Assembly (NCBI GenBank): GCA_964459595.1 | Contig: CAYWLV010000001.1 | Span: 84,056-148,055, forward strand | Source: an uncultured Gammaproteobacteria bacterium | GTDB taxonomy: Bacteria > Patescibacteriota > Microgenomatia > UBA1406 > GWC2-37-13 | Direction of reading: 5' to 3' | DNA length: 64,000 bases | Shown here: positions 4,944 to 63,286 of the stretch, in pieces | How the letters are laid out: each line of letters begins with the position of its first letter | Numbering within the stretch: the first letter of the stretch is position 1 | Program-made: the position numbers and the translations under genes | Notes under the pieces: model-generated | What the model was told of the DNA's origin: nothing | Databases searched by the model: none | What the model saw: only the letters and a program-made list of their open reading frames with translations

Positions 4944-7388
4944 CCAGTAGCCATCAATATCTATTGTTTTTCCTTCTCCCACTTTATAGTATTTTTTTAC
5001 TTCATTTATACCTAGATCTACATTATTAGTAAGCCATGGAAGAAAAACATAATATATGTTTCCTTGGTATTTCTTATCTTTATGAATGGCTAAATTTTCT
5101 GTATAAAGAACAGAAGGTTTGTAGGTGTTTTTAATTTTGTAAGTTAATATATATGATTTTTCGATATTCATATACTCATAATATGCAAGCCATTTATTCC
5201 GATGATATTTTTCATTTAATACATTAAATATAAGCGTATCAGAAGCAGCAACTTGTATCCTCTTGTTAAATGCATTAAGTAATCTATTGATATAAACATA
5301 TTCAGTATTGTAGACCATAGAATCGCATCTACTCGAAAAATCATCGCTGATTTTAAAAATAGTATGTTTCCCAAATTTCATAGAGCCAAAGTATTTAATT
5401 GATAGGGGATCAATTGAATAAAATAATTGAAACATATTAAATATGATTCCAATCACTGCAAAGCTAATTCCAAAACCTATTTTTTTGTCAAAAGATAAAT
5501 AGTAAAGAATCATTGTTATAAGAAAAAAAGGCGCCATTACTACGTAGCGAGGATGAGTAACAGTTACATAAGTCAAATTAAAGCAGAGGTATACGAGCCA
5601 TGTAATAATCAAAGCAAAATAGTATTTATTATGAAAAATGCTGCAATTTATCTTTTTATTAAGTAAAATCAAATATATTAAAAGTAATACGTATATCCAA
5701 CTCCCATTAAGAATAAAGATTTGTCCAAAACGTTGATACATAACGCTTGTATTTATCAGAAGTGAGGTATTTATACTTCCTACAGACCCTCCCCACACCT
5801 TTCCACCATTTACTACAACGTAAATTATAAAAACAAATAGAGGAATGAATAAAATAAAATATTTATAAATCAACCTTAGTATTGATAAAGTTTTTTGATT
5901 TATGTTGAACTTCATATAGTAAGGAGATATTTCTATTAAAAATAGAGACCCTATATATGCAGAGTAAATTAAAACTCCAATTTCCTTAGAGAAAAGGGAT
6001 AGCGTGCCAGCAAATACAGCAAGAATATAGTAGCTATGGCTAAGGAGTGTAATAAAAATGATAAAAAATGCAAATGAAGGATAATCTAATGAAATATTAA
6101 GCGAAGTTGAAAATAGAAGTGGAGTTGTACATATGAGAATTGAATATATAGATGAAAGGCCTCTACTTATAATAAAAATATTTCTATATAAATAATATAA
6201 GGAAATATACGTAGCAACACACAACATCATAAAGCTAGCTTGAAGTAATACAGTATTTCCAATTTGTAAAAAACTTAGAATACTAATAATAAATGCAATT
6301 CCATGCGATGAATGGCCATACCATTGGAACCCTCTAAAAAACTGAAAAAATGAAAAATCAAAGTTACTCATTCCTTCGACTGCAGACATAAAATTATTCC
6401 CTCCATCGAATCGAGGCAAATCTTTGAGAAAAGGCAAATATAATACTATTATAAAAATTGATCCAACTCCAATATATTTATCAATTTTCAGTTTTGAAAA
6501 AAAATAATTACTAGTCTTACTTGTGGTTATTAAATAGATAAATAGAATATGAAGAAAACTAAATAATATAAGTAAATCTATTTTTAGTTTTTGAAATAAA
6601 TATAGATCTCCAAAAAGAGCTGAATCGATAAAGAGGAGTAAGAAGAACATAACCATCGCAATTTCAAATTTCACTTTAGGAATTGATATTCTAGATACTA
6701 ATGACTTAATAAGCCTAATGTGCGTCTGAGTATCAAAATAATTTAATAATGATGTTAGTAAACGTCGTTTAAAGAAAAAAATTAAAAAAAATCCAATATA
6801 AAGAAAACTAGAAGAAATAATAGTGATGGGCTCTATATATGACAAATATGATCTTATCTTTAATAGTAGAAAGCTTTCAAGTGAGTTTAGAACGGATTTT
6901 TTAGTATAAATATATTTCACTAAGAATTTCCCTGAGTTGGAGATGCCTATCGAATTTTCACTTCTGCCTCGCTGAGATATAATTGTAATTTCATATGCTT
7001 TTCCTTTAGATTCTGTTTGCTTTGGAAATCCAAAAGGATAATATTCTGAATCTGATATATTTTTTGTGTTATATGAATTCAGATATATCCAGTTTAATTT
7101 CCCCCTTTCTTTTAGTCCGAACACAAGCGTATCATCATTATTTCGATTATATGTATTTATATATAGACTAACAATTCCCAAATTGTTTGTTTCAGCTTTA
7201 AATGAATAGGTTAGTTTTTGAGCTTTTTTTAATTCTGGTCGTTTGATGCTCGTTTGCAATACATTAGTAATTGTAAGTGGCGTATCAGAATATTTAATAA
7301 GCGCAAAGAAAAAAGAGATTATAAGGATACTAATTTGTACAGCAAAGCAAACTAGAAGTATTTTTCTATATTTAAAAATATTTCTCAT
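4908..7388 (-). CDS. Large polytopic membrane protein (826 aa) of unknown function, possibly a glycan polymerase/transferase
   Basis: Long ORF with an N-terminal TM helix, a soluble domain of about 170 aa, more than 12 hydrophobic helices and a soluble C-terminal domain of about 200 aa. GC is very low. I recognise no catalytic motif. Confidence 0.55.
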   Translation of the reverse strand: MRNIFKYRKILLVCFAVQISILIISFFFALIKYSDTPLTITNVLQTSIKRPELKKAQKLTYSFKAETNNLGIVSLYINTYNRNNDDTLVFGLKERGKLNWIYLNSYNTKNISDSEYYPFGFPKQTESKGKAYEITIISQRGRSENSIGISNSGKFLVKYIYTKKSVLNSLESFLLLKIRSYLSYIEPITIISSSFLYIGFFLIFFFKRRLLTSLLNYFDTQTHIRLIKSLVSRISIPKVKFEIAMVMFFLLLFIDSALFGDLYLFQKLKIDLLILFSFLHILFIYLITTSKTSNYFFSKLKIDKYIGVGSIFIIVLYLPFLKDLPRFDGGNNFMSAVEGMSNFDFSFFQFFRGFQWYGHSSHGIAFIISILSFLQIGNTVLLQASFMMLCVATYISLYYLYRNIFIISRGLSSIYSILICTTPLLFSTSLNISLDYPSFAFFIIFITLLSHSYYILAVFAGTLSLFSKEIGVLIYSAYIGSLFLIEISPYYMKFNINQKTLSILRLIYKYFILFIPLFVFIIYVVVNGGKVWGGSVGSINTSLLINTSVMYQRFGQIFILNGSWIYVLLLIYLILLNKKINCSIFHNKYYFALIITWLVYLCFNLTYVTVTHPRYVVMAPFFLITMILYYLSFDKKIGFGISFAVIGIIFNMFQLFYSIDPLSIKYFGSMKFGKHTIFKISDDFSSRCDSMVYNTEYVYINRLLNAFNKRIQVAASDTLIFNVLNEKYHRNKWLAYYEYMNIEKSYILTYKIKNTYKPSVLYTENLAIHKDKKYQGNIYYVFLPWLTNNVDLGINEVKKYYKVGEGKTIDIDGYWLRYYKLTKLSQ

Positions 7389-8589
7389 GAATTATTGACA
7401 AAAATGACAGTTTGAAGTTTTCAGAATCAAAAAGATTTGAAACAGCAACGGATTGAATATTATTTGAAAGTAAATGTAGTAAAGTGTTTGAAACTAGATT
7501 ATCTTGATTTTTGAAGAGATATTTTCGAGTATCCGCTTTATAAAGTGTATTTACTATCTCTGGCAGTCCTCCCCCATTATAGAGCACTGGGATGCAGCCT
7601 GCTGATATCGCCTCAACAGCCGCAATTCCAAAGTGCTCCATATTAATAGGATTGGTTTCTCCATAGCCCCCTGCATGCCAATATATTTTAGATTTGAGGA
7701 GCACATCCTCAACTTCCTTTCGATCCACATTCAAGTGAAAGAAAATGGGATAGCCTTTTGCCATTTCCTTGAGCTGTTCAATATAGCGAATTGAGGAAGG
7801 CTCAGTGCCAACGCCGCCAACGAGATGTAATTGCAAGTCAGTCGTGAGTCGAGGGTCGTTGGTCGATAGCACGGAATACAGCTCTTTAAATGCCTCAATG
7901 AGGATTTCTTGCTTTTTTCCGTGGCCTAAAGTGAAGAATCGGCCAACTGAAGCAATCCAGTTGAGTTTAGTCGTAGGTCGTTGGCCGTTAGCCGTTAGCA
8001 GTTTTACTGGTGGATATATAACTATCGCGTTTTTATTCCACATCTTTTTTATCCATCCCTTTACAAACTCAGAATGACAGATAAAAGTATCATATGAGTT
8101 CAGCCGTTTGACCATGTCAGGGTATACTCCAGCACGAAGTCTATCATTAAGCTTTTCATATAGAAAATTAGTCGAGAGTCGTTGGTCGATGGCCGATGGA
8201 ATGAATTTTTTTATAAATCTAAAAAACTGGAGGACATAGTTGAAGAGGCCGCTGCGGATAGTCGAAGGAAAATGCACATAGTAGATATTCCACTTTCCGA
8301 TTGCATAGGAATAGTCCATGAAGGAGATATTTACAAACAAGTCTACAGACGATAGTCGTTGGTCGAGAGCAAAGGAGCGAAGCGATTCTTCACTTTCAAC
8401 CTGCTTGAAGGTGACGTCTGAGAGGTCGATGTCGAGCTTTTCCTTAATTTTAGTTAGAGAGACAGAATCTTGAGATACAAATATCACCTCAAAACCCTCA
8501 TCTGCAAGTGTTCGAGCAATTGTGCACGCCACTACTTCCCCGCCGCCCAAGCCCGAGAGCCATTTGTCATAAATAATTGCGGTTTTCAT
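7372..8589 (-). CDS. Glycosyltransferase family 4 (GT-B fold)
   Basis: N-terminal GLGGGEVVA and C-terminal EHFGIAAVEAISAGCIPV, an E-x7-E-like motif. The gene carries four in-frame heptamer tracts. Confidence 0.75.
   Translation of the reverse strand: MKTAIIYDKWLSGLGGGEVVACTIARTLADEGFEVIFVSQDSVSLTKIKEKLDIDLSDVTFKQVESEESLRSFALDQRLSSVDLFVNISFMDYSYAIGKWNIYYVHFPSTIRSGLFNYVLQFFRFIKKFIPSAIDQRLSTNFLYEKLNDRLRAGVYPDMVKRLNSYDTFICHSEFVKGWIKKMWNKNAIVIYPPVKLLTANGQRPTTKLNWIASVGRFFTLGHGKKQEILIEAFKELYSVLSTNDPRLTTDLQLHLVGGVGTEPSSIRYIEQLKEMAKGYPIFFHLNVDRKEVEDVLLKSKIYWHAGGYGETNPINMEHFGIAAVEAISAGCIPVLYNGGGLPEIVNTLYKADTRKYLFKNQDNLVSNTLLHLLSNNIQSVAVSNLFDSENFKLSFLSIIHEKYF
7838..7870. repeat. In-frame heptamer tract in the GT4 gene
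   Basis: gtcagtc|gtgagtc|gagggtc|gttggtc|gatagc has period 7 and encodes VLSTNDPRLTTDL. Confidence 0.65.
7966..8002. repeat. In-frame heptamer tract in the GT4 gene
   Basis: gtttagtcgtaggtcgttggccgttagccgttagcag encodes KLLTANGQRPTTKLN. Confidence 0.65.
8168..8199. repeat. In-frame heptamer tract in the GT4 gene
   Basis: ttagtcgagagtcgttggtcgatggccgatgg encodes PSAIDQRLSTN. The 21-mer is identical to 506-526. Confidence 0.7.
8348..8370. repeat. In-frame heptamer tract in the GT4 gene
   Basis: gacgatagtcgttggtcgagagc encodes ALDQRLSSV. Confidence 0.6.
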
Positions 8590-18620: not shown

Positions 18621-19721
18621 ATGACCAAAATATTTATTTCAGGATCAATGGCCTACGATGATATTATGGTCTTTCCACATCATTTTAAAGACTACTTTCA
18701 TCCGGAAAAACTACATCAAATAAATGTGTCATTTGCAGTCAGCGAATTGGCAAAACATTTGGGAGGAATTGCCACAAATGTGAGTTATGCGCTACGAAAT
18801 ACATGTGATTATTACGTGCAAAATCCTAAATCCCAAACACTAAATCCTAAACAAACCCCAAATTCTAAATCAAAAATAAATCAAGACGGGAACATTTCAA
18901 TTTATCCCGTGGGGGCGGTGGGGAGAGATGGCGATTTGCTTCTTGATTTTTTTAAAAAGAATTCAATAGACAGCTCATACGTACTCAAAGATGAAAAACT
19001 CTATACGGCAACGGGAAAAGTGATTACAGACATGAATGATAATCAAATATGGGGGTTTTACTACGGGGCCTGTTGCATAAATCCTAAACTCGAAACCCTA
19101 AAAACAAAACAAATGGATCAAAATTCCAAATCCCAAAAAGAGGATCAGTTTTGGATTGTGTCTGCGACGCATGAGAAGCCGTTCACCACTGTTCTCCGAC
19201 ATGTTATTCAAAATAAACTCCCCTACATGTTTGATCCCGGTATGGCCCTCACCTGGATCCGAGATGATTTGCTTAAAAAAGGAGTGCTGAACGCAACATA
19301 CGTTGTTGGTAATGATTACGAGATTGCAATGATAGAAAAACGATTGAAGATGAGTGTAGTGGAGATAGTGAAGGGCGGAGTGAATGTGATCACAACACTG
19401 GGAGAAAAAGGCGTGAAATACGATGAGGTACTAAATGAAGAAATGAAGAAATATCCAAATGAAAAAATAAATATATCTCACAAGACTCACGCTGTAGTGA
19501 AGGCGGTGAGAGTGAGGAAGGTAGTTGATCCTACCGGAGCAGGTGATGCATGGAGAGGTGGATTTGTGGGAGCGCTAGTTGCAGGTAAGTCTATTCGCGA
19601 GTGCTTAGTGATGGGAAATGTGATGTCGAGTTTTGCGGTGCAGGCGATGGGGACGGTGGAGTATAAGGCAGAGAGGAAAGAGATAGAAAAACGAATAAAA
19701 ACTCTAAACCCTAAACAATAA
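18621..19721 (+). CDS. PfkB-family carbohydrate/nucleoside kinase (adenosine-kinase candidate) with low-complexity inserts
   Basis: C-terminal DPTGAGDAWRGGF (PfkB signature 2). It lies next to ahcY. The last codons (KTLNPKQ*) read into a repeat arm. Confidence 0.7.
   Translation: MTKIFISGSMAYDDIMVFPHHFKDYFHPEKLHQINVSFAVSELAKHLGGIATNVSYALRNTCDYYVQNPKSQTLNPKQTPNSKSKINQDGNISIYPVGAVGRDGDLLLDFFKKNSIDSSYVLKDEKLYTATGKVITDMNDNQIWGFYYGACCINPKLETLKTKQMDQNSKSQKEDQFWIVSATHEKPFTTVLRHVIQNKLPYMFDPGMALTWIRDDLLKKGVLNATYVVGNDYEIAMIEKRLKMSVVEIVKGGVNVITTLGEKGVKYDEVLNEEMKKYPNEKINISHKTHAVVKAVRVRKVVDPTGAGDAWRGGFVGALVAGKSIRECLVMGNVMSSFAVQAMGTVEYKAERKEIEKRIKTLNPKQ
18818..18886. repeat. In-frame CTAAAYY-type heptamer tract in the PfkB kinase gene
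   Basis: aaatcct|aaatccc|aaacact|aaatcct|aaacaaa... encodes QNPKSQTLNPKQTPNSKSKINQ. Confidence 0.7.
19077..19140. repeat. In-frame CTAAAYY-type heptamer tract in the PfkB kinase gene
   Basis: ataaatcctaaactcgaaaccctaaaaacaaaacaaatggatcaaaattccaaatcccaaaaag encodes INPKLETLKTKQMDQNSKSQK. Confidence 0.65.
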
Positions 19722-19826
19722 ACTCTAAACAAATAAATACAAAATTCTAAATCTTAAATATAAAGATTTGAAATTTAGTATTTAATAATTTGATTAGGAT
19801 TGAGGGTTTAGTATTTAGAATTTATA
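19699..19826. repeat. Family-A heptamer hairpin element (CTAAAYY arm / RRTTTAG arm), copy A1
   Basis: Left arm aactctaaaccctaaac..ctctaaac, box aaataaatacaaaa at 19731-19744, inner palindrome aaatctt/aagattt at 19749-19769, right arm gattaggattgagggtttagtatttagaattt. Confidence 0.75.
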
Positions 19827-19835
19827 GTTAATCTT

Positions 19836-21116
19836 ATGACCTACGATGTGAAGGATATCAACTTGGCGGATTCTGGAAAACAGTTAATCGAGTGGGCGGA
19901 GAGAGAAATGCCGGTGCTTCGCCTTATTAAAAAACGATTTGCAAAAGAAAAGCCACTCAAGGGAGTGACTCTTGCAGCATGCCTTCATGTAACAAGTGAA
20001 ACAGCAAACCTCATGAGAACACTGAAAGCCGGAGGAGCAAATGTATGTTTAGCAGCAAGCAATCCCCTTTCCACAAATGATGCAGTGGCGGCAGCACTCG
20101 TGAAGGAATATGATATTCCCACATTTGCAATAAAAGGAGAAGATAACAAAACATACTTTAAGCACTTGAATGCCACACTCGATTTCAAACCAAATATGAC
20201 AATGGATGATGGTGCAGATTTGGTGAGCATTTTGCACACCACTCGAAAAGAACTTCTCAAAGGGGTGGTAGGTAGCAATGAAGAAACAACAACGGGGGTG
20301 ATTCGCTTGCGCGCAATGGAAAAAGATAAGGCGCTCAAAATCCCAGTTTTGGCAGTGAATGATAATCTCACAAAGCACATGTTTGATAATCAATATGGAA
20401 CGGGACAAAGCACACTGGACGGCGTGATTCGCGCCACCAACATGCTTCTTGCCGGCCGCAACTTTGTTGTGGTTGGGTATGGATGGTGTGGACGAGGACT
20501 CGCACGACGAGCACAAGGAATGGGAAGTCATGTGATTGTGTGTGAAGTGGATGCTGTAAAAGCGCTTGAGGCGAGAATGGATGGATACCGTGTGATGCCA
20601 CTTGTGGAAGCAATGGCGATTGCAGATGTGGTGGTCACTGTTACCGGAGACAAACATGTGATAGACACCCCTCACATTAAAGCAGCAAAAGATGGGCTTA
20701 TTCTTGCAAACTCAGGACATTTTGATGTGGAGATAAACAAAGTTGCCATGAAAAAGCTTTCAAAAAGCATTCGCACGGTGCGCCCATTTGTGGAAGAGTA
20801 TCTACTAGAAGACAGAAGTAAGAAGACAGAAATAAGAACCAAAAAAATATATCTGTTGGCAGACGGACGACTGGTGAACCTCGGCAGTGCTGAAGGACAC
20901 CCTGCGAGCGTAATGGATATGAGCTTTGCTGGGCAAGCATTGGGAAGTGAATATATGTGGAAGAATAAGGGGAAGTTTGAAAATAAAGTATATTCCCTAC
21001 CTGCTAATGTGGATCAAGAAATAGCTGCACTCAAACTGAAAAGTGAGGGTGTAGAAATTGACAAGCTTACCGCTGAGCAGAAAGAATATTTGAATAGCTG
21101 GAAGGAAGGAACGTAA
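19836..21116 (+). CDS. ahcY: Adenosylhomocysteinase
   Basis: [22 protein letters not shown]...[10 protein letters not shown]...[17 protein letters not shown]; full-length match to the family. Confidence 0.95.
20806..20840. repeat. In-frame AGAAGAY-type heptamer tract in ahcY
   Basis: tagaagacagaagtaagaagacagaaataagaacc encodes [12 protein letters not shown]. The 21-mer at 20806-20826 is identical to the intergenic 44146-44166. Confidence 0.75.
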
Positions 21117-21123
21117 GTTCCTT

Positions 21124-21191
21124 AACAAATCCTAAATTCTAAACTCTAAATCCTAAGCAAATAAAACAAAAATCTTAAATCTTAAAGATTT
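21124..21191. repeat. Family-A element A2: left arm, box and inner palindrome
   Basis: aaatcctaaattctaaactctaaatcctaagcaaataaaacaaaaatcttaaatcttaaagattt is colinear with A1. The palindrome aaatctt-a-aagattt lies at 21177-21191. Confidence 0.7.
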
Positions 21192-21570
21192 TCGGATTGC
21201 TCGCTTTTGAAGACTTGAGTATTCCTCCTAAGATGAGGGACAATTCGTGAGTTTCTTTCCACAGAGTACGAAGTGATTCCTTTCTATCTGGAAATTCAAC
21301 TGCCAATAATCGAATCCAATAGAGTGTTTCTTTACTTTCTTTTCTAGAAATAGATACTTTATTTATGAAATCTTTTTTGCTATCGCAGGCATTTGCCTCC
21401 ATGTAATTAGCTCCAATACTTGTTCCACTTCTGAGTAGTTGGTCAATGAGGGGGCGAGAAATTGTAGAGATTGTTAAGGACTTACAAAATAGAATTAATT
21501 TTTCACTAAAAATGGAAACACGCTCTTCTAGATTGTATGTTTTTGTAATTGTTTTAATATTTTGCCCCAT
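21175..21570 (-). CDS. Four-helix-bundle protein (23S rRNA intervening-sequence protein family)
   Basis: RSGTSIGANYMEANACDSKKDFINKVSISRKESKETLYWIRLL is the characteristic core of this family. The gene is nested between the two halves of repeat A2. Confidence 0.8.
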   Translation of the reverse strand: MGQNIKTITKTYNLEERVSIFSEKLILFCKSLTISTISRPLIDQLLRSGTSIGANYMEANACDSKKDFINKVSISRKESKETLYWIRLLAVEFPDRKESLRTLWKETHELSLILGGILKSSKASNPKIFKI

Positions 21571-24676: not shown

Positions 24677-24802
24677 CTAAATCCTAAACTCTAAATTCTA
24701 AACCCTAAACTAAGATACGCAAAAATCAAAATTTCTAAAACAATTAAATTTTGGATTTAATCTTTTGAGAATTAGGTTTTAGGGTTTAGGATTTAGAATT
24801 TA
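24677..24802. repeat. Family-A heptamer hairpin element A3
   Basis: The left arm ctaaatc|ctaaact|ctaaatt|ctaaacc|ctaaact has perfect period 7. The right arm is attaggt|tttaggg|tttagga|tttagaa. Confidence 0.8.
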
Positions 24803-26390: not shown

Positions 26391-28202
26391 ATGTCCTCTA
26401 TTCGCAACTTCGCAATTATCGCGCATGTAGACCATGGCAAGAGCACTCTTGCTGATCGTTTATTGGAGTTAACCGGAGTTGTATCTGCTGGAAACCATGA
26501 AGAACAGATGCTCGATCGCAATCCTGTCTCGCGTGAACGTGGTATCACCATAAAACTTGCACCGGTAAAGATGATATATAGAAGACAGAAGATAGAAGAA
26601 AGAAGTATGAATGACTCAAATCTAGATTCTGACTTCACTATTCTGAATTTAATAGATACACCTGGACATGTGGACTTTTCCTATGAAGTAGACCGAACAC
26701 TAGCCTGTGTGGATGGGGTGATTTTACTTGTTGATGCGACACAGGGGATACAAGCACAAACAATCGCCAATGCCTATAAAGCTCTTGAGAAAAATCTTGT
26801 CATTATTCCAGTCATCAATAAAATTGATATGCCGGGAGCTGAGGTTGAGAAAACAAGAAAACAGATTATGGACTTTCTGGGTATCCGGGCAGATGAAATG
26901 TATGAAATATCAGCAAAAACCGGAGAAGGAGTGCAAAAGGTATTAGATGCAGTGATTGAAAAAATTCCAGCACCGACAATTTTAGAACACAACTTAAAAG
27001 ATACACAGAACGAAGAACGGAGAACGACGAACTTTAAGCTACAAGCTCTCATTTTTGACTCATATTACGATACTCACAAAGGCGTGATTGCATTTGTACG
27101 CGTGTTTGGCGGCTCGATAAAACGAGGAATGACAGTAAAAATGGCTCATGAAGGGGGCACGTTTATTGTGTCTGAAGTGGGGATTTTCAAACCAGATCTC
27201 ACCACAACCGAAGAAGTAAAAGATGGAGAAATAGGCTATGTTGCCACCAATTTAAAAGATATTCATGCAATTCAAATTGGAGACACAATGCAACTTCCCA
27301 AAGATGATACTCCTCCCCTTCCTGGGTATAAAAAAGTGAAGCCGATGGTGTATGCAAGTATCTTTCCTACAGATACAAACGATTATCTCAATTTTAAAAA
27401 AGCACTAGAAAAGTTATATCTCACAGATAGCGCCCTCGACTTTAGTGGTATATACAGTACGGCGCTTGGTGCAGGATTTCGCGTGGGATTCTTGGGATTA
27501 CTTCATGCAGATGTTGTACGAGAACGACTTGAACGCGAATATGAGCTGAGCCTTGTTCTTACCCCCCCACAAGTAGAGTTCAAAATAGAAGATGGACGTT
27601 TTTTTGAGCCGATTGTAAAAATATTTATTTATACTCCAGAAAACTACACGGGAGCCGTTATGAAAGTGTGTGAAGAACATCGGGCCAAATTTATCACCAT
27701 GGACAATACCAATCAAATTGCACTCACTTATGAGATGCCACTAGCTGAGCTTATCACCGACTTTTTTGATCAACTGAAAAGCAAAACAAGCGGTTATGCT
27801 TCACTCGATTGGGAAATTCTTCGTTATGAGATGGCAGATGCAAATAAAATGGAACTACTTATCAACAATGATCCCGTTGAAGAGTTCTCAGAAATTGTAG
27901 TAACGGAACGAGCACAAGAGAAAGCGCAGTTTCTCACCAAGCGTTTAAAAGACCTCATCCCTCGTCAACAGTATGAAGTAAAAATTCAAGCAAAATATAA
28001 AGGAAAGATTATTGCTAGTGAGCGGATATCGCCATTTAGAAAAAATGTATTAATTCATAATAGTAAGGTAGTGGGGGCGGGAGACGTGGGAAGAAAAAAT
28101 AAGTTATTGGAAAAGCAAAAAGAGGGTAAAAAACTCATGAAAGCTGTAGGGAAAGTGGAAATCCCGAAAGATGCGTTTATGAAACTCTTCAAAAAGGATT
28201 AA
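26391..28202 (+). CDS. lepA: Translation elongation factor 4
   Basis: IRNFAIIAHVDHGKSTLADRLL...LIDTPGHVDF...C-terminal KLLEKQKEGKKLMK. The G domain holds two low-complexity inserts. Confidence 0.95.
   Translation: MSSIRNFAIIAHVDHGKSTLADRLLELTGVVSAGNHEEQMLDRNPVSRERGITIKLAPVKMIYRRQKIEERSMNDSNLDSDFTILNLIDTPGHVDFSYEVDRTLACVDGVILLVDATQGIQAQTIANAYKALEKNLVIIPVINKIDMPGAEVEKTRKQIMDFLGIRADEMYEISAKTGEGVQKVLDAVIEKIPAPTILEHNLKDTQNEERRTTNFKLQALIFDSYYDTHKGVIAFVRVFGGSIKRGMTVKMAHEGGTFIVSEVGIFKPDLTTTEEVKDGEIGYVATNLKDIHAIQIGDTMQLPKDDTPPLPGYKKVKPMVYASIFPTDTNDYLNFKKALEKLYLTDSALDFSGIYSTALGAGFRVGFLGLLHADVVRERLEREYELSLVLTPPQVEFKIEDGRFFEPIVKIFIYTPENYTGAVMKVCEEHRAKFITMDNTNQIALTYEMPLAELITDFFDQLKSKTSGYASLDWEILRYEMADANKMELLINNDPVEEFSEIVVTERAQEKAQFLTKRLKDLIPRQQYEVKIQAKYKGKIIASERISPFRKNVLIHNSKVVGAGDVGRKNKLLEKQKEGKKLMKAVGKVEIPKDAFMKLFKKD
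26579..26610. repeat. In-frame AGAAGAY-type heptamer tract in lepA
   Basis: tagaagacagaagatagaagaaagaagtatg encodes RRQKIEERSM. It shares tagaagacagaag with 20806 and 44146. Confidence 0.65.
27005..27032. repeat. In-frame heptamer tract (AGAACGN) in lepA
   Basis: cagaacg|aagaacg|gagaacg|acgaact encodes TQNEERRTTN. Confidence 0.6.
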
Positions 28203-33107: not shown

Positions 33108-33220
33108 AAAATCCTAAACTCTAAAAACTAAACTCTAAACAAATTCTAAATCATAAATCCTAAATATTTTAGGATTTTGACATAATTGATTAGGATTTAG
33201 GGTTTAGTATTTAGTGTTTG
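33108..33220. repeat. Family-A heptamer hairpin element A7
   Basis: The left arm is aaatcctaaactctaaaaactaaactctaaac. A perfect 10-bp inner stem aaatcctaaa-tat-tttaggattt lies at 33155-33177. The right arm is gattaggatttagggtttagtatttagtgtttg. Confidence 0.8.
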
Positions 33221-42602: not shown

Positions 42603-42715
42603 ACACTAAACTCTAAATCACAAATTTCAAATAATAGTTTACAAAATTCTGAAATCTAAATTTTTTTCTGATTATTATTTCAACTTTATTTTGATCTTGA
42701 GATTTAGAGTTTAAG
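42603..42715. repeat. Family-A heptamer hairpin element A10
   Basis: Left arm acactaaactctaaatcacaaat, right arm tcttgagatttagagtttaag. Confidence 0.65.
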
Positions 42716-44126
42716 ATTTTATGATCTTATACTCACCCTTTGTATCTTCTACCTTATATCCTTTAGCTTCGATTTGTCTTCGAATCTCATCTGCTTTTGC
42801 ATATTCTTTATTATCTTTAGCTTTTTTTCTTTCTGCTGCAAGTCTTTGTATTTCCTCTGGAATTTCAACTATTATATCTTCTTTAAGAAGTTCAAGTCCG
42901 AGAATAGAATCAAACTCTGTGACGAGTTGTAATTTTTCTGCTGCTGAAACACCAGACTTTAATAGGGTAAAAAGTACCGCTATAGCTTGAGGAGTCTGAA
43001 GGTCGTTTTGAATATATTTCAAAAACTTGGTCCTATAATCTGGGGATCCTTCGACTTCATCTTTTGTTTGTGTGCTTCGCTCGTCGTTTTTTATTTTTGA
43101 TTTTAGATTGTTGATTTCCGACTTAAGCCGGTTATATGCCTCTTCAGCCCCTTCCAGTGCTTTCCAAGTGAAGTTCATGGGCTGGCGATAGTGCGACTGC
43201 AAGAGAAGAAGTCGATATGCAAGCGGATCAATTCCTCGTCTTGTGATATCTTCAATCGTAAAGAAATTGCCAAGACTCTTACTCATCTTCTCCCCTTCTA
43301 CCTGAAGAAAGTGGTAGTGCATCCACACATGCACAAAGGGAACCCCATTTGCTGCTTCAGACTGAGCAATTTCATTTTCATGATGTACTGGGATATGATC
43401 AATCCCTCCGGTGTGAATATCGAGCGTTTTTCCTAAATATTTCATGGCCATTGCAGAGCACTCAATGTGCCATCCCGGGAATCCATCTCCCCAAGGAGAG
43501 TCCCAGTGCATAGTATGGTCCTTAAATTTTCCCACTCGCTTAAACCACAATGAAAAATCTGCAGGGTGGCGCTTATCTTTGTCTGTATATACATCATCCC
43601 GCACCGCTTCTTTTTTATCTTCTTTTTTCTGACCAGAAAGTTTGCCATAATCAGCTAATGTTGATGTATCAAAATATACTGCTTCTTGAGTTTCATATGC
43701 ATGACCACCCTTAATAAGTGTTTGTACTAGTTCAATCATCTCGGGAATATGATCGGTTGCTTTACAGGTGATAGTTGGACGAGAGATATTCATTGCATCC
43801 ATCGACAAAAAGAAGAAGTCGGTATAATACTTTGCAAGGTCCCACACTGTTTTTCCATATTTCCGTGCACCCTTTTCCATTTTATCTTCTCCTGAGTCTG
43901 CATCGTCTGATAAATGTCCAACATCGGTGATATTCATAACATGCTTCACATCATATCCTAGATATTTGAAGACTCGTTTAAGTGTGTCGTTGAACACGTA
44001 TGCGCGTATATGGCCAATATGCGCAAAATCGTATACGGTGGGGCCGCAAGAATAGAGTGAGAGTTTATGAGGAATGAGTGGTTTAAATTCCTCAACAGTT
44101 CGTGTAAGCGTGTTGTAAAGTTTCAT
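42711..44126 (-). CDS. cysS: Cysteine--tRNA ligase
   Basis: MKLYNTLTR..YSCGPTVYDFAHIGHIR (HIGH)...KMSKSLGN. Confidence 0.95.
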   Translation of the reverse strand: MKLYNTLTRTVEEFKPLIPHKLSLYSCGPTVYDFAHIGHIRAYVFNDTLKRVFKYLGYDVKHVMNITDVGHLSDDADSGEDKMEKGARKYGKTVWDLAKYYTDFFFLSMDAMNISRPTITCKATDHIPEMIELVQTLIKGGHAYETQEAVYFDTSTLADYGKLSGQKKEDKKEAVRDDVYTDKDKRHPADFSLWFKRVGKFKDHTMHWDSPWGDGFPGWHIECSAMAMKYLGKTLDIHTGGIDHIPVHHENEIAQSEAANGVPFVHVWMHYHFLQVEGEKMSKSLGNFFTIEDITRRGIDPLAYRLLLLQSHYRQPMNFTWKALEGAEEAYNRLKSEINNLKSKIKNDERSTQTKDEVEGSPDYRTKFLKYIQNDLQTPQAIAVLFTLLKSGVSAAEKLQLVTEFDSILGLELLKEDIIVEIPEEIQRLAAERKKAKDNKEYAKADEIRRQIEAKGYKVEDTKGEYKIIKS

Positions 44127-44138
44127 TCGAATATTATA

Positions 44139-44198
44139 CAGAAGATAGAAGACAGAAGTAAGAAGATAGAATCACATTCTTAATTCTTGCTTCTAACT
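44139..44198. repeat. Family-D heptamer hairpin element (AGAAGAY arm / RTCTTCT arm)
   Basis: Left arm agaagat|agaagac|agaagta|agaagat|agaat, right arm attcttaattcttgcttctaacttcattcttct. Confidence 0.75.
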
Positions 44199-44211
44199 TC
44201 ATTCTTCTAAA

Positions 44212-44982
44212 TTATATCTCAAATTTCGCTAGGAGTGGAAAATGATCCGAGTAGGGAGCATTTATGCGGATAATTGAAACAGCCTTACAATTTTTGTAAA
44301 AACAGTAATCGAGTTTGCTTTCCTTTCCGATAAAAAATTGAAGAATTTTCATAAGATATTTTTCAATTACAGTGTAGTACAGGAGTTTTCCATCGGTCGT
44401 GTAGGAAATGGTGTTTGTCGCTTCCGAAAAACCATGAGACTCCATAAGCATTTCTAGTTTTTTTCTCCCGAATGGATAGTTGAAGTCGCCTACAAGGATT
44501 GTAGCATGAGAAGAAGATTTTTGAATATCGTCTAGCGTTCTCTCAAGCTGTTTTATTCGAATTCCGTTTGTACCGTGGGGGGATAGATGAATATTGTAAA
44601 CATCCACCTTTTTATTTGTACCTTCCACTTCAAATTCTGCTTTTAATACTGTTCTATCTTTTTTCTTGCTTTTAAAAATACGGAGTATAAACGTGATTGC
44701 TTCAGCGAGACCCCGCGGGAGTGTAATCGATTTTGTTTCTGTACACACAACTTGTTCTGGATTATAAAATGTAGCCACTCCATATACTTTTCCAAATTTT
44801 ATAAATCCATTTGAATAATCTGCTAGTGAATAGCCCAACTTTTCAATTCTCTCCAAACTTTTCTCATGAGTATCAACCTCTTGAAGACAGACGATATCTG
44901 GTGAGTATTTTTTGAAAAAAGAAGGGAGCCCCTTTTGACCATCATTAAATAGCGTATTGTAGGTAAGAATGGAAAGCTGCAT
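44212..44982 (-). CDS. Endonuclease/exonuclease/phosphatase (EEP) family protein
   Basis: N-terminal LTYNTLF...DIVCLQEV and C-terminal SDHFPL, which are EEP signatures. Confidence 0.7.
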   Translation of the reverse strand: MQLSILTYNTLFNDGQKGLPSFFKKYSPDIVCLQEVDTHEKSLERIEKLGYSLADYSNGFIKFGKVYGVATFYNPEQVVCTETKSITLPRGLAEAITFILRIFKSKKKDRTVLKAEFEVEGTNKKVDVYNIHLSPHGTNGIRIKQLERTLDDIQKSSSHATILVGDFNYPFGRKKLEMLMESHGFSEATNTISYTTDGKLLYYTVIEKYLMKILQFFIGKESKLDYCFYKNCKAVSIIRINAPYSDHFPLLAKFEI

Positions 44983-45713: not shown

Positions 45714-45766
45714 AAAGTCTGAAAGTCTTAAAGTCTAAAGTCAGAAAGTTGGAAAGTTAGAAAGAC
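45714..45766. repeat. Family-C heptamer tract (AAGTCTR flavour), single arm, upstream of the tRNA
   Basis: aagtctg|aaagtct|taaagtc|taaagtc|agaaagt|tggaaag|ttagaaag. Confidence 0.6.
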
Positions 45767-45790: not shown

Positions 45791-45863
45791 CGGGACATAG
45801 TTCAGATGGTAGAACATGCGGTTCGGGACCGCAAGGTCGTGAGTTCAAGTCTCACTGTCCCGA
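45791..45863 (+). tRNA. tRNA-Pro (anticodon CGG)
   Basis: Hand-folded cloverleaf: acceptor CGGGACA/TGTCCCG, D stem GTTC/GAAC, anticodon stem TGCGG/CCGCA with loop TTCGGGA, T arm GTGAG-TTCAAGT-CTCAC, discriminator A. No CCA is encoded. Confidence 0.9.
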
Positions 45864-45893
45864 CTTTCATTTTTTGTTATACTCAAAACACCT

Positions 45894-52569: not shown

Positions 52570-52690
52570 ACTAAACCCCAAATCTTAAACTCTAAACAAA
52601 TCCCAAATTATAAATCCTAAAAAATAATAATTTAGAGTTTGCTATTTTGCATTAATTTGATTAGGATTTAGTGTTTAAGATTTAGGGTTT
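52570..52690. repeat. Family-A heptamer hairpin element A14
   Basis: Left arm actaaaccccaaatcttaaactctaaacaaatcccaaat, right arm gattaggatttagtgtttaagatttagggttt. Confidence 0.75.
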
Positions 52691-58807: not shown

Positions 58808-58931
58808 AAAACTCTAAACTCTAAACGCTAAACCCTAAACAAATCATAAATCCTAAATCTGAATACCTAAATATTTCTAATTAAGAATTTTGACCTTTTT
58901 GACTGAGATTTAGTGTTTAGTATTTAGGATT
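58808..58931. repeat. Family-A heptamer hairpin element A18
   Basis: Left arm aaaactc|taaactc|taaacgc|taaaccc|taaacaa, right arm gagatttagtgtttagtatttaggattt. It overlaps the proS stop. Confidence 0.75.
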
Positions 58932-61878: not shown

Positions 61879-61961
61879 AAATTTAATTTTTAAATTTTAA
61901 TTTTTTAATAACTATTAATTTTTAAATTAAATCATTAAAAATTGAATAGAAATTAAAAATT
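61879..61961. repeat. Family-B AT-only heptamer hairpin element B5
   Basis: Left arm aaatttaatttttaaattttaattttttaat, right arm ttaaattaaatcattaaaaattgaatagaaattaaaaatta. Confidence 0.6.
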
Positions 61962-63156
61962 ACTTGAACAGTCTGAGGATGTCGTTAATCGATACCAAAA
62001 CCGCAAGTCCCATAAGGAACACAAATCCAGCAATATTGGTGATATTTTCTATCCTCTGATGAACTTGTTTTCTAGTAATCCACTCATACACTACAAATAC
62101 CATCCGTCCCCCATCAAGCGCCGGGAAAGGAAGTATATTCATAACGCCCAGAGAGAGAGAAAGGAGCGCCATTAAATTCAAAATGTTTTTAATGAGCTGT
62201 GTTCCTGATGTTTGTACCATATCATTTACCACTCCATATATTCCCACAGGACCGGCAACTGCTCCAGAAACAGCAGATGCATTTTTTTCTTTGATTGATA
62301 CACCTATGAGTTTTCCAATTGCGCTGAAGTTGTATTCCAACACATTATAAGAATGCATAAAACCAGAAAACACTCTATCAAGCGGTTGCTGATATGAAAT
62401 AACCACCCCATCTATAAGGCTGACTCCAATTATAGCCCGCTTGAGTTTTGAATTGTACTGAGGAACTACAGGAATTGTTTTTGTTGCACCATCTTTGAGA
62501 TTTACTGTTTCCAAGTAGATAGTTTTCCCCGGAGATTTTTTAATTAAATCGATAAGTTGCTGTGCAGATGTTAGATGAGTAATGGAGTTATCTGACTCGA
62601 TTGAATAGGAGGAAATAATATCCTCCGACTTTATACCTGCCGTTTCTGCAGGGGATCCTTTTGACAAATTAACCGCAATTACTCTTCCCTCTTGTACACC
62701 AAACGTAAAGTGATGGGGAAAAAGCATGGGGAGTGGATCTGACTTGAAATTGTTACTAGCAAGAAGTCCATAAAGTACCAACACTCCAAAGAGCAGATTC
62801 ATCACGACGCCCGCAGCCACAATAAGAGCTTTTTGATAGGGTTTTTTAAAGGCAAAAGCATCCGTTAAGGACGTAGGGTGTAGGGTGTAGGGTGTCGTTG
62901 TTGAGCTTTCAGCTTTCAGCTTTGAGCTATCTACTTCTTGGTATTCTTCACCAAATAATTTTACGTAGCCACCAAGGGGGAAAATATTTATTGAATAATT
63001 GGTTTCTCCATATTTAATTGTGAAAAGGCGGGGGGGAAATCCAATAGCAAACTCTTCTACCCGCACACCATTGAGTTTTGCCATAATGAAATGGCCAAAT
63101 TCGTGAATAAGAACTAGAAAGCTAAGTATTAATAAAAAGATAATGAGAGAAATCAT
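61960..63156 (-). CDS. rseP: RIP zinc metalloprotease RseP (site-2 protease)
   Basis: HEFGHFIMAK (HExxH), PDZ-like middle region, NILPFPALDGG. It contains an in-frame heptamer insert. Confidence 0.9.
   Translation of the reverse strand: MISLIIFLLILSFLVLIHEFGHFIMAKLNGVRVEEFAIGFPPRLFTIKYGETNYSINIFPLGGYVKLFGEEYQEVDSSKLKAESSTTTPYTLHPTSLTDAFAFKKPYQKALIVAAGVVMNLLFGVLVLYGLLASNNFKSDPLPMLFPHHFTFGVQEGRVIAVNLSKGSPAETAGIKSEDIISSYSIESDNSITHLTSAQQLIDLIKKSPGKTIYLETVNLKDGATKTIPVVPQYNSKLKRAIIGVSLIDGVVISYQQPLDRVFSGFMHSYNVLEYNFSAIGKLIGVSIKEKNASAVSGAVAGPVGIYGVVNDMVQTSGTQLIKNILNLMALLSLSLGVMNILPFPALDGGRMVFVVYEWITRKQVHQRIENITNIAGFVFLMGLAVLVSINDILRLFK
62873..62927. repeat. Two in-frame triple heptamers in rseP: (GTAGGGT)x3 and (AGCTTTC/G)x3
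   Basis: gtagggtgtagggtgtagggt at 62873-62893 and agctttcagctttcagctttg at 62904-62924. Each is 21 nt = 7 codons. Together they encode KLKAESSTTTPYTLHPT. Confidence 0.8.
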
Positions 63157-63158
63157 AT

Positions 63159-63286
63159 AAGTCTGAAAGTCTAAAAGTTGTAAAGTCTAAGATCAAAAAG
63201 CACGCGACTTAGATAATACATTATACACATGGAGAATTGATTATTGACTGACTTTATGACCTTAAGACTTTCAGACTTTTGACTTG
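63159..63286. repeat. Family-C heptamer hairpin element (AAGTCTR arm / YAGACTT arm)
   Basis: Left arm aagtctgaaagtctaaaagttgtaaagtctaaga, right arm ccttaagactttcagacttttgactt. Confidence 0.7.

Follow-up and report, generated by a model that had tools for sequence, protein, structure and literature searches.

An in-frame heptamer array in the adenosylhomocysteinase gene of a Patescibacteria genome, and its relation to intergenic repeats

The window analysed here is a stretch of 64,000 nucleotides from an uncultured member of the Patescibacteriota (contig CAYWLV010000001.1, positions 84,056 to 148,055). Judged by the source names of the closest homologues, the organism is a Candidatus Roizmanbacteria-like member of the Patescibacteria. 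The window carries ahcY, the gene for adenosylhomocysteinase, next to pfkB, and further along lepA, cysS and a gene of the Exo_endo_phos (EEP) family (Table 1). Within ahcY lies an in-frame array of AGAAGNN heptamers, and a 21-mer of this array recurs in the hairpin-forming spacer between cysS and the EEP gene. The original prediction, made from the sequence of the window, had read this identity as direct evidence that an intergenic repeat had entered an essential open reading frame (ORF).

The ahcY gene and its in-frame insertion

The product of ahcY aligned in full to the solved enzyme PDB 7o5l (residues 2-426, E=3e-158), the NAD-binding domain included. An exact look-up of the protein in the contig index gave no record, and homologous proteins were used for the comparison. 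In the best 120 homologues, on which the AdoHcyase Pfam domains PF05221, PF00670 and PF02826 were found, the modal length was 417 aa, and a segment of the form x-[IVL]-G-K-K-K lay between the ..VEEY/F and IYLLAEGRL blocks. Where this segment has 6 residues, the AhcY of the window has 15, which is 9 aa or 27 nt more, and this was the sole internal indel site in the alignment. We conclude that the segment is a genuine in-frame insertion relative to the ancestral 417-aa form. An in-frame insert of about 8 aa had been proposed; the insertion is real, and its length is 9 aa.

In PDB 7o5l the insertion site is a tight turn (ILPN-GKSIIVI). An AlphaFold2 model of the window AhcY built from 37 sequences (mean predicted local distance difference test score, pLDDT, of 86) has strands at residues 319-326 and 334-341 with a loop at 327-333, and in this model the insert is predicted to lengthen a β-hairpin, with a pLDDT of ∼77-79 there. 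The original prediction had called for an alignment to orthologues and a mapping onto a structure, and both place the insert at the β-hairpin turn. The frame is kept and the remainder of AhcY is aligned in full to 7o5l; hence the insertion is compatible with the fold.

At the DNA level the insert consists of about five 7-nt units, each with a 5-nt core and two variable positions, and the core decays towards a 3′ A-run, with which it merges. With five AGAAGNN units it qualifies as a heptanucleotide simple sequence repeat (SSR), for which at least three tandem 7-nt units are required. Tandem Repeats Finder (TRF) reported a period of 14, with 2.3 copies and 94% matches, at 20807-20838. Local folding against shuffled sequences revealed neither a complementary second arm nor a significant fold (z=-1.2 on the plus and -0.1 on the minus strand). 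In a register display inspected by eye, a 2-nt AG..AG microhomology bounds the insert; no terminal inverted repeat (TIR) or target site duplication (TSD) was recognised by eye at its boundaries, and no dedicated search for either was made.

The same 27-nt insert, in the same position and register, was found in three other assemblies, L001 (JGI, a 1.14-Mb contig), L002 (ENA) and L248 (JGI), and its occurrence in four independent assemblies removes the concern that it could be an assembly artefact. The exact 21-mer is present in ahcY of L248, and L003 has an empty allele, GTTATAGGAAAAAAGAAA. The genomes with a filled allele have diverged considerably from the window: AhcY is 84-90% identical, 46-52% of the codons for the same amino acid differ in the ahcY flanks, and CysS is 77% identical in the orthologue comparison. 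In all four orthologues the array is 27 nt long and has changed by substitutions only, so that the copy-number instability of active slippage was not observed. The AGAAGNN insert of lepA is likewise common to the window and L001. The orthologous EEP-cysS spacer of the L001 genome (L126, 9751-10000) holds a heptamer hairpin of the CTAAACN/GTTTAGR family, without AGAAGNN. Because the insert is present in four diverged genomes while the L126 spacer is of another family, the ahcY copy is older than the spacer copy. From these comparisons, the coding copies in ahcY and lepA are old and stable, and the cysS-spacer copy is lineage-specific.

Table 1. Features of the window discussed in the text
Feature	Position	Strand	Remarks
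CTAAANN-family array inside pfkB	18821..18874	+	encodes NPKSQTLNPKQTPNSKSK; site varies among relatives
pfkB-ahcY spacer hairpin	19699..19824		CTAAACN / GTTTAGR family; TRF, alignment
ahcY (adenosylhomocysteinase)	19836..21116	+	426 aa versus 417-aa baseline in relatives; PDB 7o5l, E=3e-158
reported 21-mer	20806..20826	+	DNA-identical in L248; 20806-20831 nearly identical in L001; synonymous sites frozen
heptamer array	20807..20841	+	AGAAGAC AGAAGTA AGAAGAC AGAAATA AGAACCA; encodes 11 residues in the β-hairpin turn
27-nt in-frame insertion AAGACAGAAGTAAGAAGACAGAAATAA	20809..20835	+	between ATAG and GAAAAAAGAAA of the empty site; placement ambiguous by a few nt; L003 versus L001, L002, L248
lepA in-frame insert	26580..26639	+	+51 nt versus empty alleles; encodes RRQKIEERSMNDSNLDSDFT
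cysS	42711..44126	-	downstream of the hairpin
EEP-cysS intergenic hairpin	44140..44208		left arm of 5 AGAAGNN units, 44140-44174 (21-mer at 44146-44166); right arm is its reverse complement
Exo_endo_phos (EEP) family gene	44212..44982	-	upstream of the hairpin; L126 orthologue annotated PF03372

Heptamer arrays within and beyond the window

When the 64-kb window was searched for the 21-mer TAGAAGACAGAAGTAAGAAGA, exact copies were found in ahcY (20806-20826) and in the cysS spacer (44146-44166), both on the plus strand, together with a third copy with 2 mismatches in lepA (26579-26599). The expectation for matches at ≤3 mismatches, from 100 dinucleotide shuffles of the window, was 0.02; in random sequence, chance would fall far short of explaining the identity. 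All three copies contain TAGAAGACAGAAG, and in each the units follow one another in the order AC, TA or AT, and A. The three loci, which are the AGAAGNN loci of the window, are arrays of a single heptamer family with a restricted repertoire at the NN positions (AT 30%, AC 29%, TT 9%, and so on, among the matches listed in a metagenome scan). In a simulation of three 5-unit AGAAGNN arrays, some 21-mer was shared in ∼25% of the cases with the restricted repertoire, versus 1.3% with a uniform one.

Hence three elements of the original prediction were borne out, namely the exact identity of the two 21-mers, the translation given for the copy in ahcY and, by the fold, the location of the second in the left arm of the cysS/EEP spacer hairpin. 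The step from there to direct evidence that an intergenic repeat had entered the ORF cannot be taken, because the NN repertoire of the family is restricted (P∼0.25 for an identity within the family), and because the copy in the ORF is older than the one in the spacer. Judged from the sequences, the identity denotes membership of the same family and is no proof that one copy was made directly from the other; that ahcY and the cysS spacer have a 21-mer in common would reflect this family, or possibly an old paralogy, and not a recent transfer from the spacer. For the ahcY-cysS spacer pair, a recent entry of the repeat into the ORF, or a direction from spacer to ORF, is thus not supported.

The EEP-cysS hairpin folds with -28.1 kcal/mol (z=-6.5, with 0 of 200 shuffles as good); its AGAAG cores pair, and the NN positions partly form internal loops. 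Between the hairpin and the cysS ATG (44127-44139, minus strand) lies an extended -10-like sequence, TGTATAAT, with a counterpart at 9985-10000 of L126 despite the differing heptamer family there; a scan of the cysS spacer for consensus promoters (simple sigma-70) and terminators gave no call. A leader or read-through RNA of the EEP gene and cysS, both on the minus strand, would include 21 nt in perfect antisense to the ahcY insert (or 26 nt if 1 mismatch is allowed). This pairing is not conserved in the L001 genome. The ahcY and cysS genes both touch sulfur amino-acid metabolism.

Period-7 arrays are a general property of the window. At 15-16 matches in 21, 41-46 period-7 regions were detected, versus at most 11 for every other period from 4 to 12, and 28-32 for period 14, a harmonic of 7. 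About 30 of the period-7 regions lie in the non-coding 9.6% of the window and 10-12 in coding sequences (CDS), examples being those in pfkB, ahcY, lepA (twice), cysS and the ORFs 7372..8589 and 61960..63156. The excess of heptanucleotide SSRs, mainly intergenic, is therefore evident in the 64-kb window. Nearly every spacer has such arrays, and in most spacers an array is followed by its own reverse complement, so that a hairpin results. For the spacer between pfkB and ahcY, compared in three genomes, 5 of 42 predicted pairs showed compensatory double changes, which argues that the intergenic hairpins are maintained as hairpins. The left arm of this hairpin (19699-19737) also encodes the final codons of pfkB (18621..19721), ..TLNPKQ stop.

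Other repeats of the window were recorded as well. Intergenic units resembling CCCTAAA/TTTAGGG, the plant-type telomere heptamer, occur at 24772-24802, 33190-33219, 52573-52627 and 58808-58841, and ahcY of L006 has TTAGGGG x4; the resemblance is striking and probably a coincidence. A second, rarer repeat class is formed by period-8 arrays, AAAGTCTG / GACTTTAA, at 45714-45764, 63159-63188 and 63250-63279, one of them directly upstream of the only tRNA gene of the window (tRNA-Pro, 45791-45864). On the minus strand, the CDS 61960..63156 has adjacent GTAGGGT x3 and AGCTTTC x3 arrays within 62865-62935, and the CDS 7372..8589 has three GTCGNNG-type arrays within 7837-8199. Adjoining ahcY is a gene of the four-helix-bundle type known from 23S rRNA intervening sequences (21175..21570, minus strand). 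L001 and L002 have it too, and in L003, L004 and L005 it is absent or lies elsewhere; it is thus a small variable gene within an otherwise syntenic block.

To judge from the sequences collected, AGAAGNN arrays constitute a repeat type that crosses phyla. A metagenome scan for TAGAAGACAGAAGWWAGAAGA (a 21-mer, with the TA/AT variant allowed) matched at least 120 contigs (L128-L247) with a GC content of 29-72%; almost all of the matches lay within longer AGAAGAC/AGAAGAT arrays, and none of those inspected had an ahcY or lepA context. Among the matches listed, the end of the array fell no more than ∼40 nt upstream of a long ORF start in 27 of 123 cases, versus 13 of 120 in an opposite-side control, and several AGAAGAY arrays stand directly before a ribosome-binding site and an ATG. 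The 17-nt core AGACAGAAGTAAGAAGA was also searched for in genome contigs (596 Gb). It gave at least 117 chance-level matches (L009-L125) in unrelated phyla, with no Roizmanbacteria among the matches listed, and is too short a pattern to be informative. Several Bacteroidales metagenome-assembled genomes had multiple 17-mer matches; in one of them two matches lie 21 nt apart (for example L051, 6748-6785), which suggests AGAAG-type heptamer arrays there.

Recurrent insertion sites in AhcY, LepA and PfkB

At the codon position where the window AhcY is interrupted, at least 13 unrelated types of peptide insert, of +3 to +17 aa, are scattered among 417-aa forms over the tree of Patescibacteria (a neighbour-joining tree of AhcY, with no bootstrap support). 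Each of the six types available as DNA proved to be a short tandem array, and in five the unit is 7 nt long: AGAAGNN in the window, L001, L002 and L248; CTCAAAG x4 in L004; CAAATYC, with units of 6-7 nt, in L005; TTAGGGG x4 in L006; NTTAAAA in L007; and a perfect AAAATCC x4 in L008. The last of these has the same length as the insert of the window and consists of unrelated DNA, so that the objection foreseen in the original prediction, that distant lineages might have a segment of the same length filled with unrelated DNA, applies in part. Because the baseline is 417 aa, however, the site is a recurrent hotspot and not an ancestral loop. In L008 an AAAATCC array also lies just 3′ of ahcY. As a rule, a match between each ahcY insert and the neighbouring arrays of its own genome was rejected: it holds for the window and L001 (in lepA) and for L008, but fails for L004-L007 within ±10 kb.

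The insert in lepA has two arms, the left one made up of AGAAGNN x4-5 (26580-26614) and the right one a decayed complementary copy (26624-26644). LepA has only two major internal indel sites, and 70 and 93, respectively, of 120 homologues (P0241-P0360) have at least 3 residues in these variable blocks. At the first site dozens of unrelated inserts, of 1 to 51 aa, interrupt the ancestral turn x-Y-G-[DE]-Y-x, and many of them look like translated two-armed repeats. At the second (window positions 27003-27034, about aa 198-208) the window has an AGAACGN heptamer array. In PfkB, 3-4 internal sites are variable and are occupied by peptides derived from heptamers.

A different, GC-rich palindromic element (VIPVKTGIQ...LDSRLRGNDK) was found in frame at the LepA turn and in PfkB of L004, L005 and L006. 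Its sequence is GTCATCCCCG..CGGGGATCCAG...CTGGATTCCCGC..GCGGGAATGAC (lepA of L004, 15290-15390). The three host genomes are AT-rich, and this is a situation truly like that of the Rickettsia palindromic elements (RPEs). The L126 cysS spacer holds GTCATTGCGAGCGGATCGC, a motif related to this element. Taken together, the general phenomenon is a colonisation of a few β-turn codons of core proteins by repeat-derived DNA, and to describe its working at this level the comparison with RPEs is fitting.

Origin and significance of the ahcY insert

Any account of the ahcY copy has to accommodate what was observed, that is, an old in-frame insertion of heptamer nature that lacks a hairpin, at a site where insertions recur, in a window with an excess of period 7. 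The account that we favour, and to which we would give about an even chance of being correct, is that of a fossil array of about five AGAAGNN units (net +27 nt) that was inserted once in ahcY and has been vertically inherited. A single insertion would have taken place in the ancestor of a subclade of Roizmanbacteria-like Patescibacteria, its target being the Gly codon at the tip of the AhcY β-hairpin, ancestral x-I-G-K-K-K. Most likely the array would have arisen by replication slippage or short-patch template switching at the purine/A-rich codons of the Gly-Lys-Lys-Lys turn, with the local sequence, or perhaps another array, as the seed. It may have been retained as a stop-free multiple of 3 that codes for hydrophilic residues (E, D, R, S, K, T) and lengthens only a solvent-exposed hairpin, and it would be selectively neutral at the protein level.

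Several observations weigh against this fossil-array account. An active microsatellite would vary in length, but the array measures 27 nt in each of the four genomes. Inserted and empty ahcY alleles interleave among close relatives (P0001/P0002; P0004/P0006), which would need precise loss, allele exchange or repeated gain. With at least 13 independent insertions at one AhcY codon and none in other loops, the pattern is more site-specific than simple permissiveness predicts. The lepA insert stands at a site without a purine-rich seed (TATGGTGATTAT); being two-armed and at a seedless site, it must have been imported and cannot have grown locally. Finally, frozen synonymous sites are not expected of a neutral passenger, and yet they were found. 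In a synonymous-site comparison of 4 orthologues, with about 8 codons each, none of the 8 codons for the same amino acid in the first 21 nt of the ahcY insert differed between the window and L001, L002 and L248, against 46-52% in the flanks. The codon-specific probability of no difference is 0.0026, and the non-preferred codons GAC and AAG AAG are retained. The AGAAGNN arm of lepA likewise had 0 of 8 synonymous differences versus L001 (P=0.0033), the joint probability for ahcY and lepA being ∼9e-6. Free divergence was seen in the remainder of the lepA insert (2/5) and in the 3′ units of the one in ahcY. The frozen sites point to a constraint on the DNA or RNA itself, which the fossil-array account leaves unexplained.

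Three other causes of the frozen sites were considered and rejected. A recombination tract is at variance with the differences in the codons that flank the insert. Codon bias is excluded by the codon-specific rates. Gene conversion among arrays (concerted evolution) does not fit with orthologous arrays that are more alike than paralogous ones, nor with 3′ units that decay freely.

The chief rival to a local origin is import from another array. An intergenic hairpin repeat like that at 44140-44208 would have reached ahcY as a copy, through transposition, gene conversion or template switching, the insert being a captured piece of a mobile, RPE-like element. The common family and exact 21-mer of ahcY and spacer are in line with this, as are TAGAAGACAGAAG and the unit order kept in all three copies. 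The lepA copy, with both hairpin arms preserved, looks imported, and the GC-rich palindromic element dispersed in frame into LepA and PfkB of L004-L006 indicates that import into such loops happens; the array on both sides of the ahcY end in L008, within the insert and 3′ of the gene, points the same way. However, the ahcY copy predates the split of the four genomes and the L126 spacer is of the other family, so that the spacer cannot be demonstrated as the donor. The ahcY insert is one-armed and does not fold, an identical 21-mer has a probability of ∼0.25 within the family, four of the five other insert types have no matching array within ±10 kb, and no TIR/TSD signature was recognised by eye at the boundaries. 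We therefore regard import into ahcY as doubtful, if well worth keeping in mind.

The frozen sites raise another possibility, namely that the array functions as nucleic acid, by binding a protein or an antisense RNA or by making translation pause, with selection acting on the motif and not on the peptide. The minus-strand transcript of the cysS spacer would complement 21 nt of the ahcY mRNA perfectly; the transcribed strand of cysS and EEP carries their exact complement. In all four genomes the first 21 nt of the insert show no synonymous change, although non-preferred codons are used, while the 3′ half evolves freely, even in amino acids, and the lepA arm bears the same signature. The AGAAGAY arrays in at least 120 metagenome contigs, with their tendency to lie just upstream of ORF starts (27/123 versus 13/120), would be in keeping with such a role. 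On the other hand, the partner is not conserved, the L126 spacer being without AGAAGNN, the insert is missing from the closest relative (P0002) and from many others, no local RNA structure was found at the ahcY insert, and the evidence of the frozen sites comes from 4 orthologues with about 8 codons each. A function of this kind seems to us improbable. That there was no insertion at all, the longer loop being ancestral and the 417-aa forms deletions, or the segment an assembly or chimera artefact, can hardly be maintained. About one third of the 120 closest homologues do have extra residues at the site, but the 417-aa x-[IVL]-G-K-K-K form is uniform across all clades and solved structures share the short turn, the longer forms are mutually unrelated in sequence and length, and an identical insert is present in four independent assemblies (NCBI, JGI, ENA). 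This reading is refuted by these facts.

Similar phenomena are known from other bacteria. RPEs are palindromic elements of ∼150 bp (range ∼100-150 bp) that form defined families, each encoding a conserved peptide (Ogata et al. 2000, summarised in PMC10969869). The present case resembles them in that repeat DNA is in frame in conserved housekeeping genes of a reduced genome, at fold-compatible sites, with the same class in intergenic regions (PMC10969869). Of the comparison with RPEs that the original prediction had drawn, the in-frame, fold-compatible insertion of repeat DNA stands. The likeness does not extend to the ahcY insert itself, which is 27 nt long, one-armed (z=-1.2), non-palindromic, built of 7-nt units and from an unrelated phylum, so that it matches RPEs neither in length nor in palindromy. 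Closer analogues are the two-armed 51-nt insert of lepA and the GC-rich element of the relatives. MITEs (miniature transposable elements with inverted repeats; ERIC, BOX and cyanobacterial MITEs) are also short non-autonomous repeats tolerated in ORFs as translational fusions (PMC10969869). The ahcY insert differs from them in being far shorter than any described MITE and in having no linked transposase and no TIR/TSD recognised by eye.

The heptamer nature of the arrays recalls bacterial heptamer SSRs, such as the cyanobacterial STRR and GGGGA(T/C)T and the Xanthomonas GGGAATC (PMC4692102) or the TAACTGA of Beggiatoaceae and Cyanobacteria (PMC4679880). These share with the window an excess of period 7, a mostly intergenic location, often ∼4 units, and sometimes inverted pairs able to form stem-loops (PMC4692102, PMC4679880). 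Their excess is attributed to polymerase slippage in both studies, each citing Mrazek 2007 (PMC4692102, PMC4679880). The known heptamer SSRs are, however, described as under-represented in or excluded from coding regions, whereas here they are in frame at recurrent hotspots of essential genes. The window also differs in having many unit sequences in one genome, with a 5-nt core and 2 variable positions, and in coding copies that are length-stable and conserved. Borgs likewise have pervasive tandem repeats, both intergenic and in frame, which add hydrophilic or low-complexity peptide (PMC9879509). In comparison, the ahcY unit is 7 nt long (so that the peptide period would be 7 aa), its copies are imperfect and the insert is old. 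The in-gene units of Borgs are reportedly multiples of 3 nt, near-perfect and recently formed.

In the literature on heptamer repeats or in-frame repeat insertions of the Candidate Phyla Radiation (CPR)/Patescibacteria, no report was found of in-frame heptamer arrays at recurrent hotspots of essential genes. An excess of heptamer SSRs (STRR, GGGAATC, TAACTGA) and in-frame repeats (RPEs, MITEs) were already known. The case links intergenic heptamer microsatellites with the in-frame insertion of repeats, the latter known mainly from Rickettsia. In practical terms, repeat-derived inserts can confound the alignment, phylogeny and annotation of CPR proteins.

AhcY, LepA and PfkB offer a testable system for protein length variation in reduced genomes, for DNA targeting versus protein tolerance at hotspots, and for synonymous conservation. 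As a long shot, somewhat more remote than a nucleic-acid function of the ahcY array, Patescibacteria may have a process that selects its sites and places short heptamer arrays, and hairpin repeats, at the β-hairpin turn codons of essential proteins (AhcY x-I-G-K-K-K, LepA x-Y-G-[DE]-Y-x, and PfkB), where the arrays would be kept by selection on DNA or RNA and not on the protein. If this were true, the arrays would serve, for instance, for binding or as targets of antisense transcripts from the spacer hairpins, and would be an unrecognised regulatory or genome-maintenance layer and not junk. In any event, the spacers of a minimal CPR genome are built by a class of repeats that also extends the hairpin turns of core enzymes, repeatedly and at the same codon across lineages.

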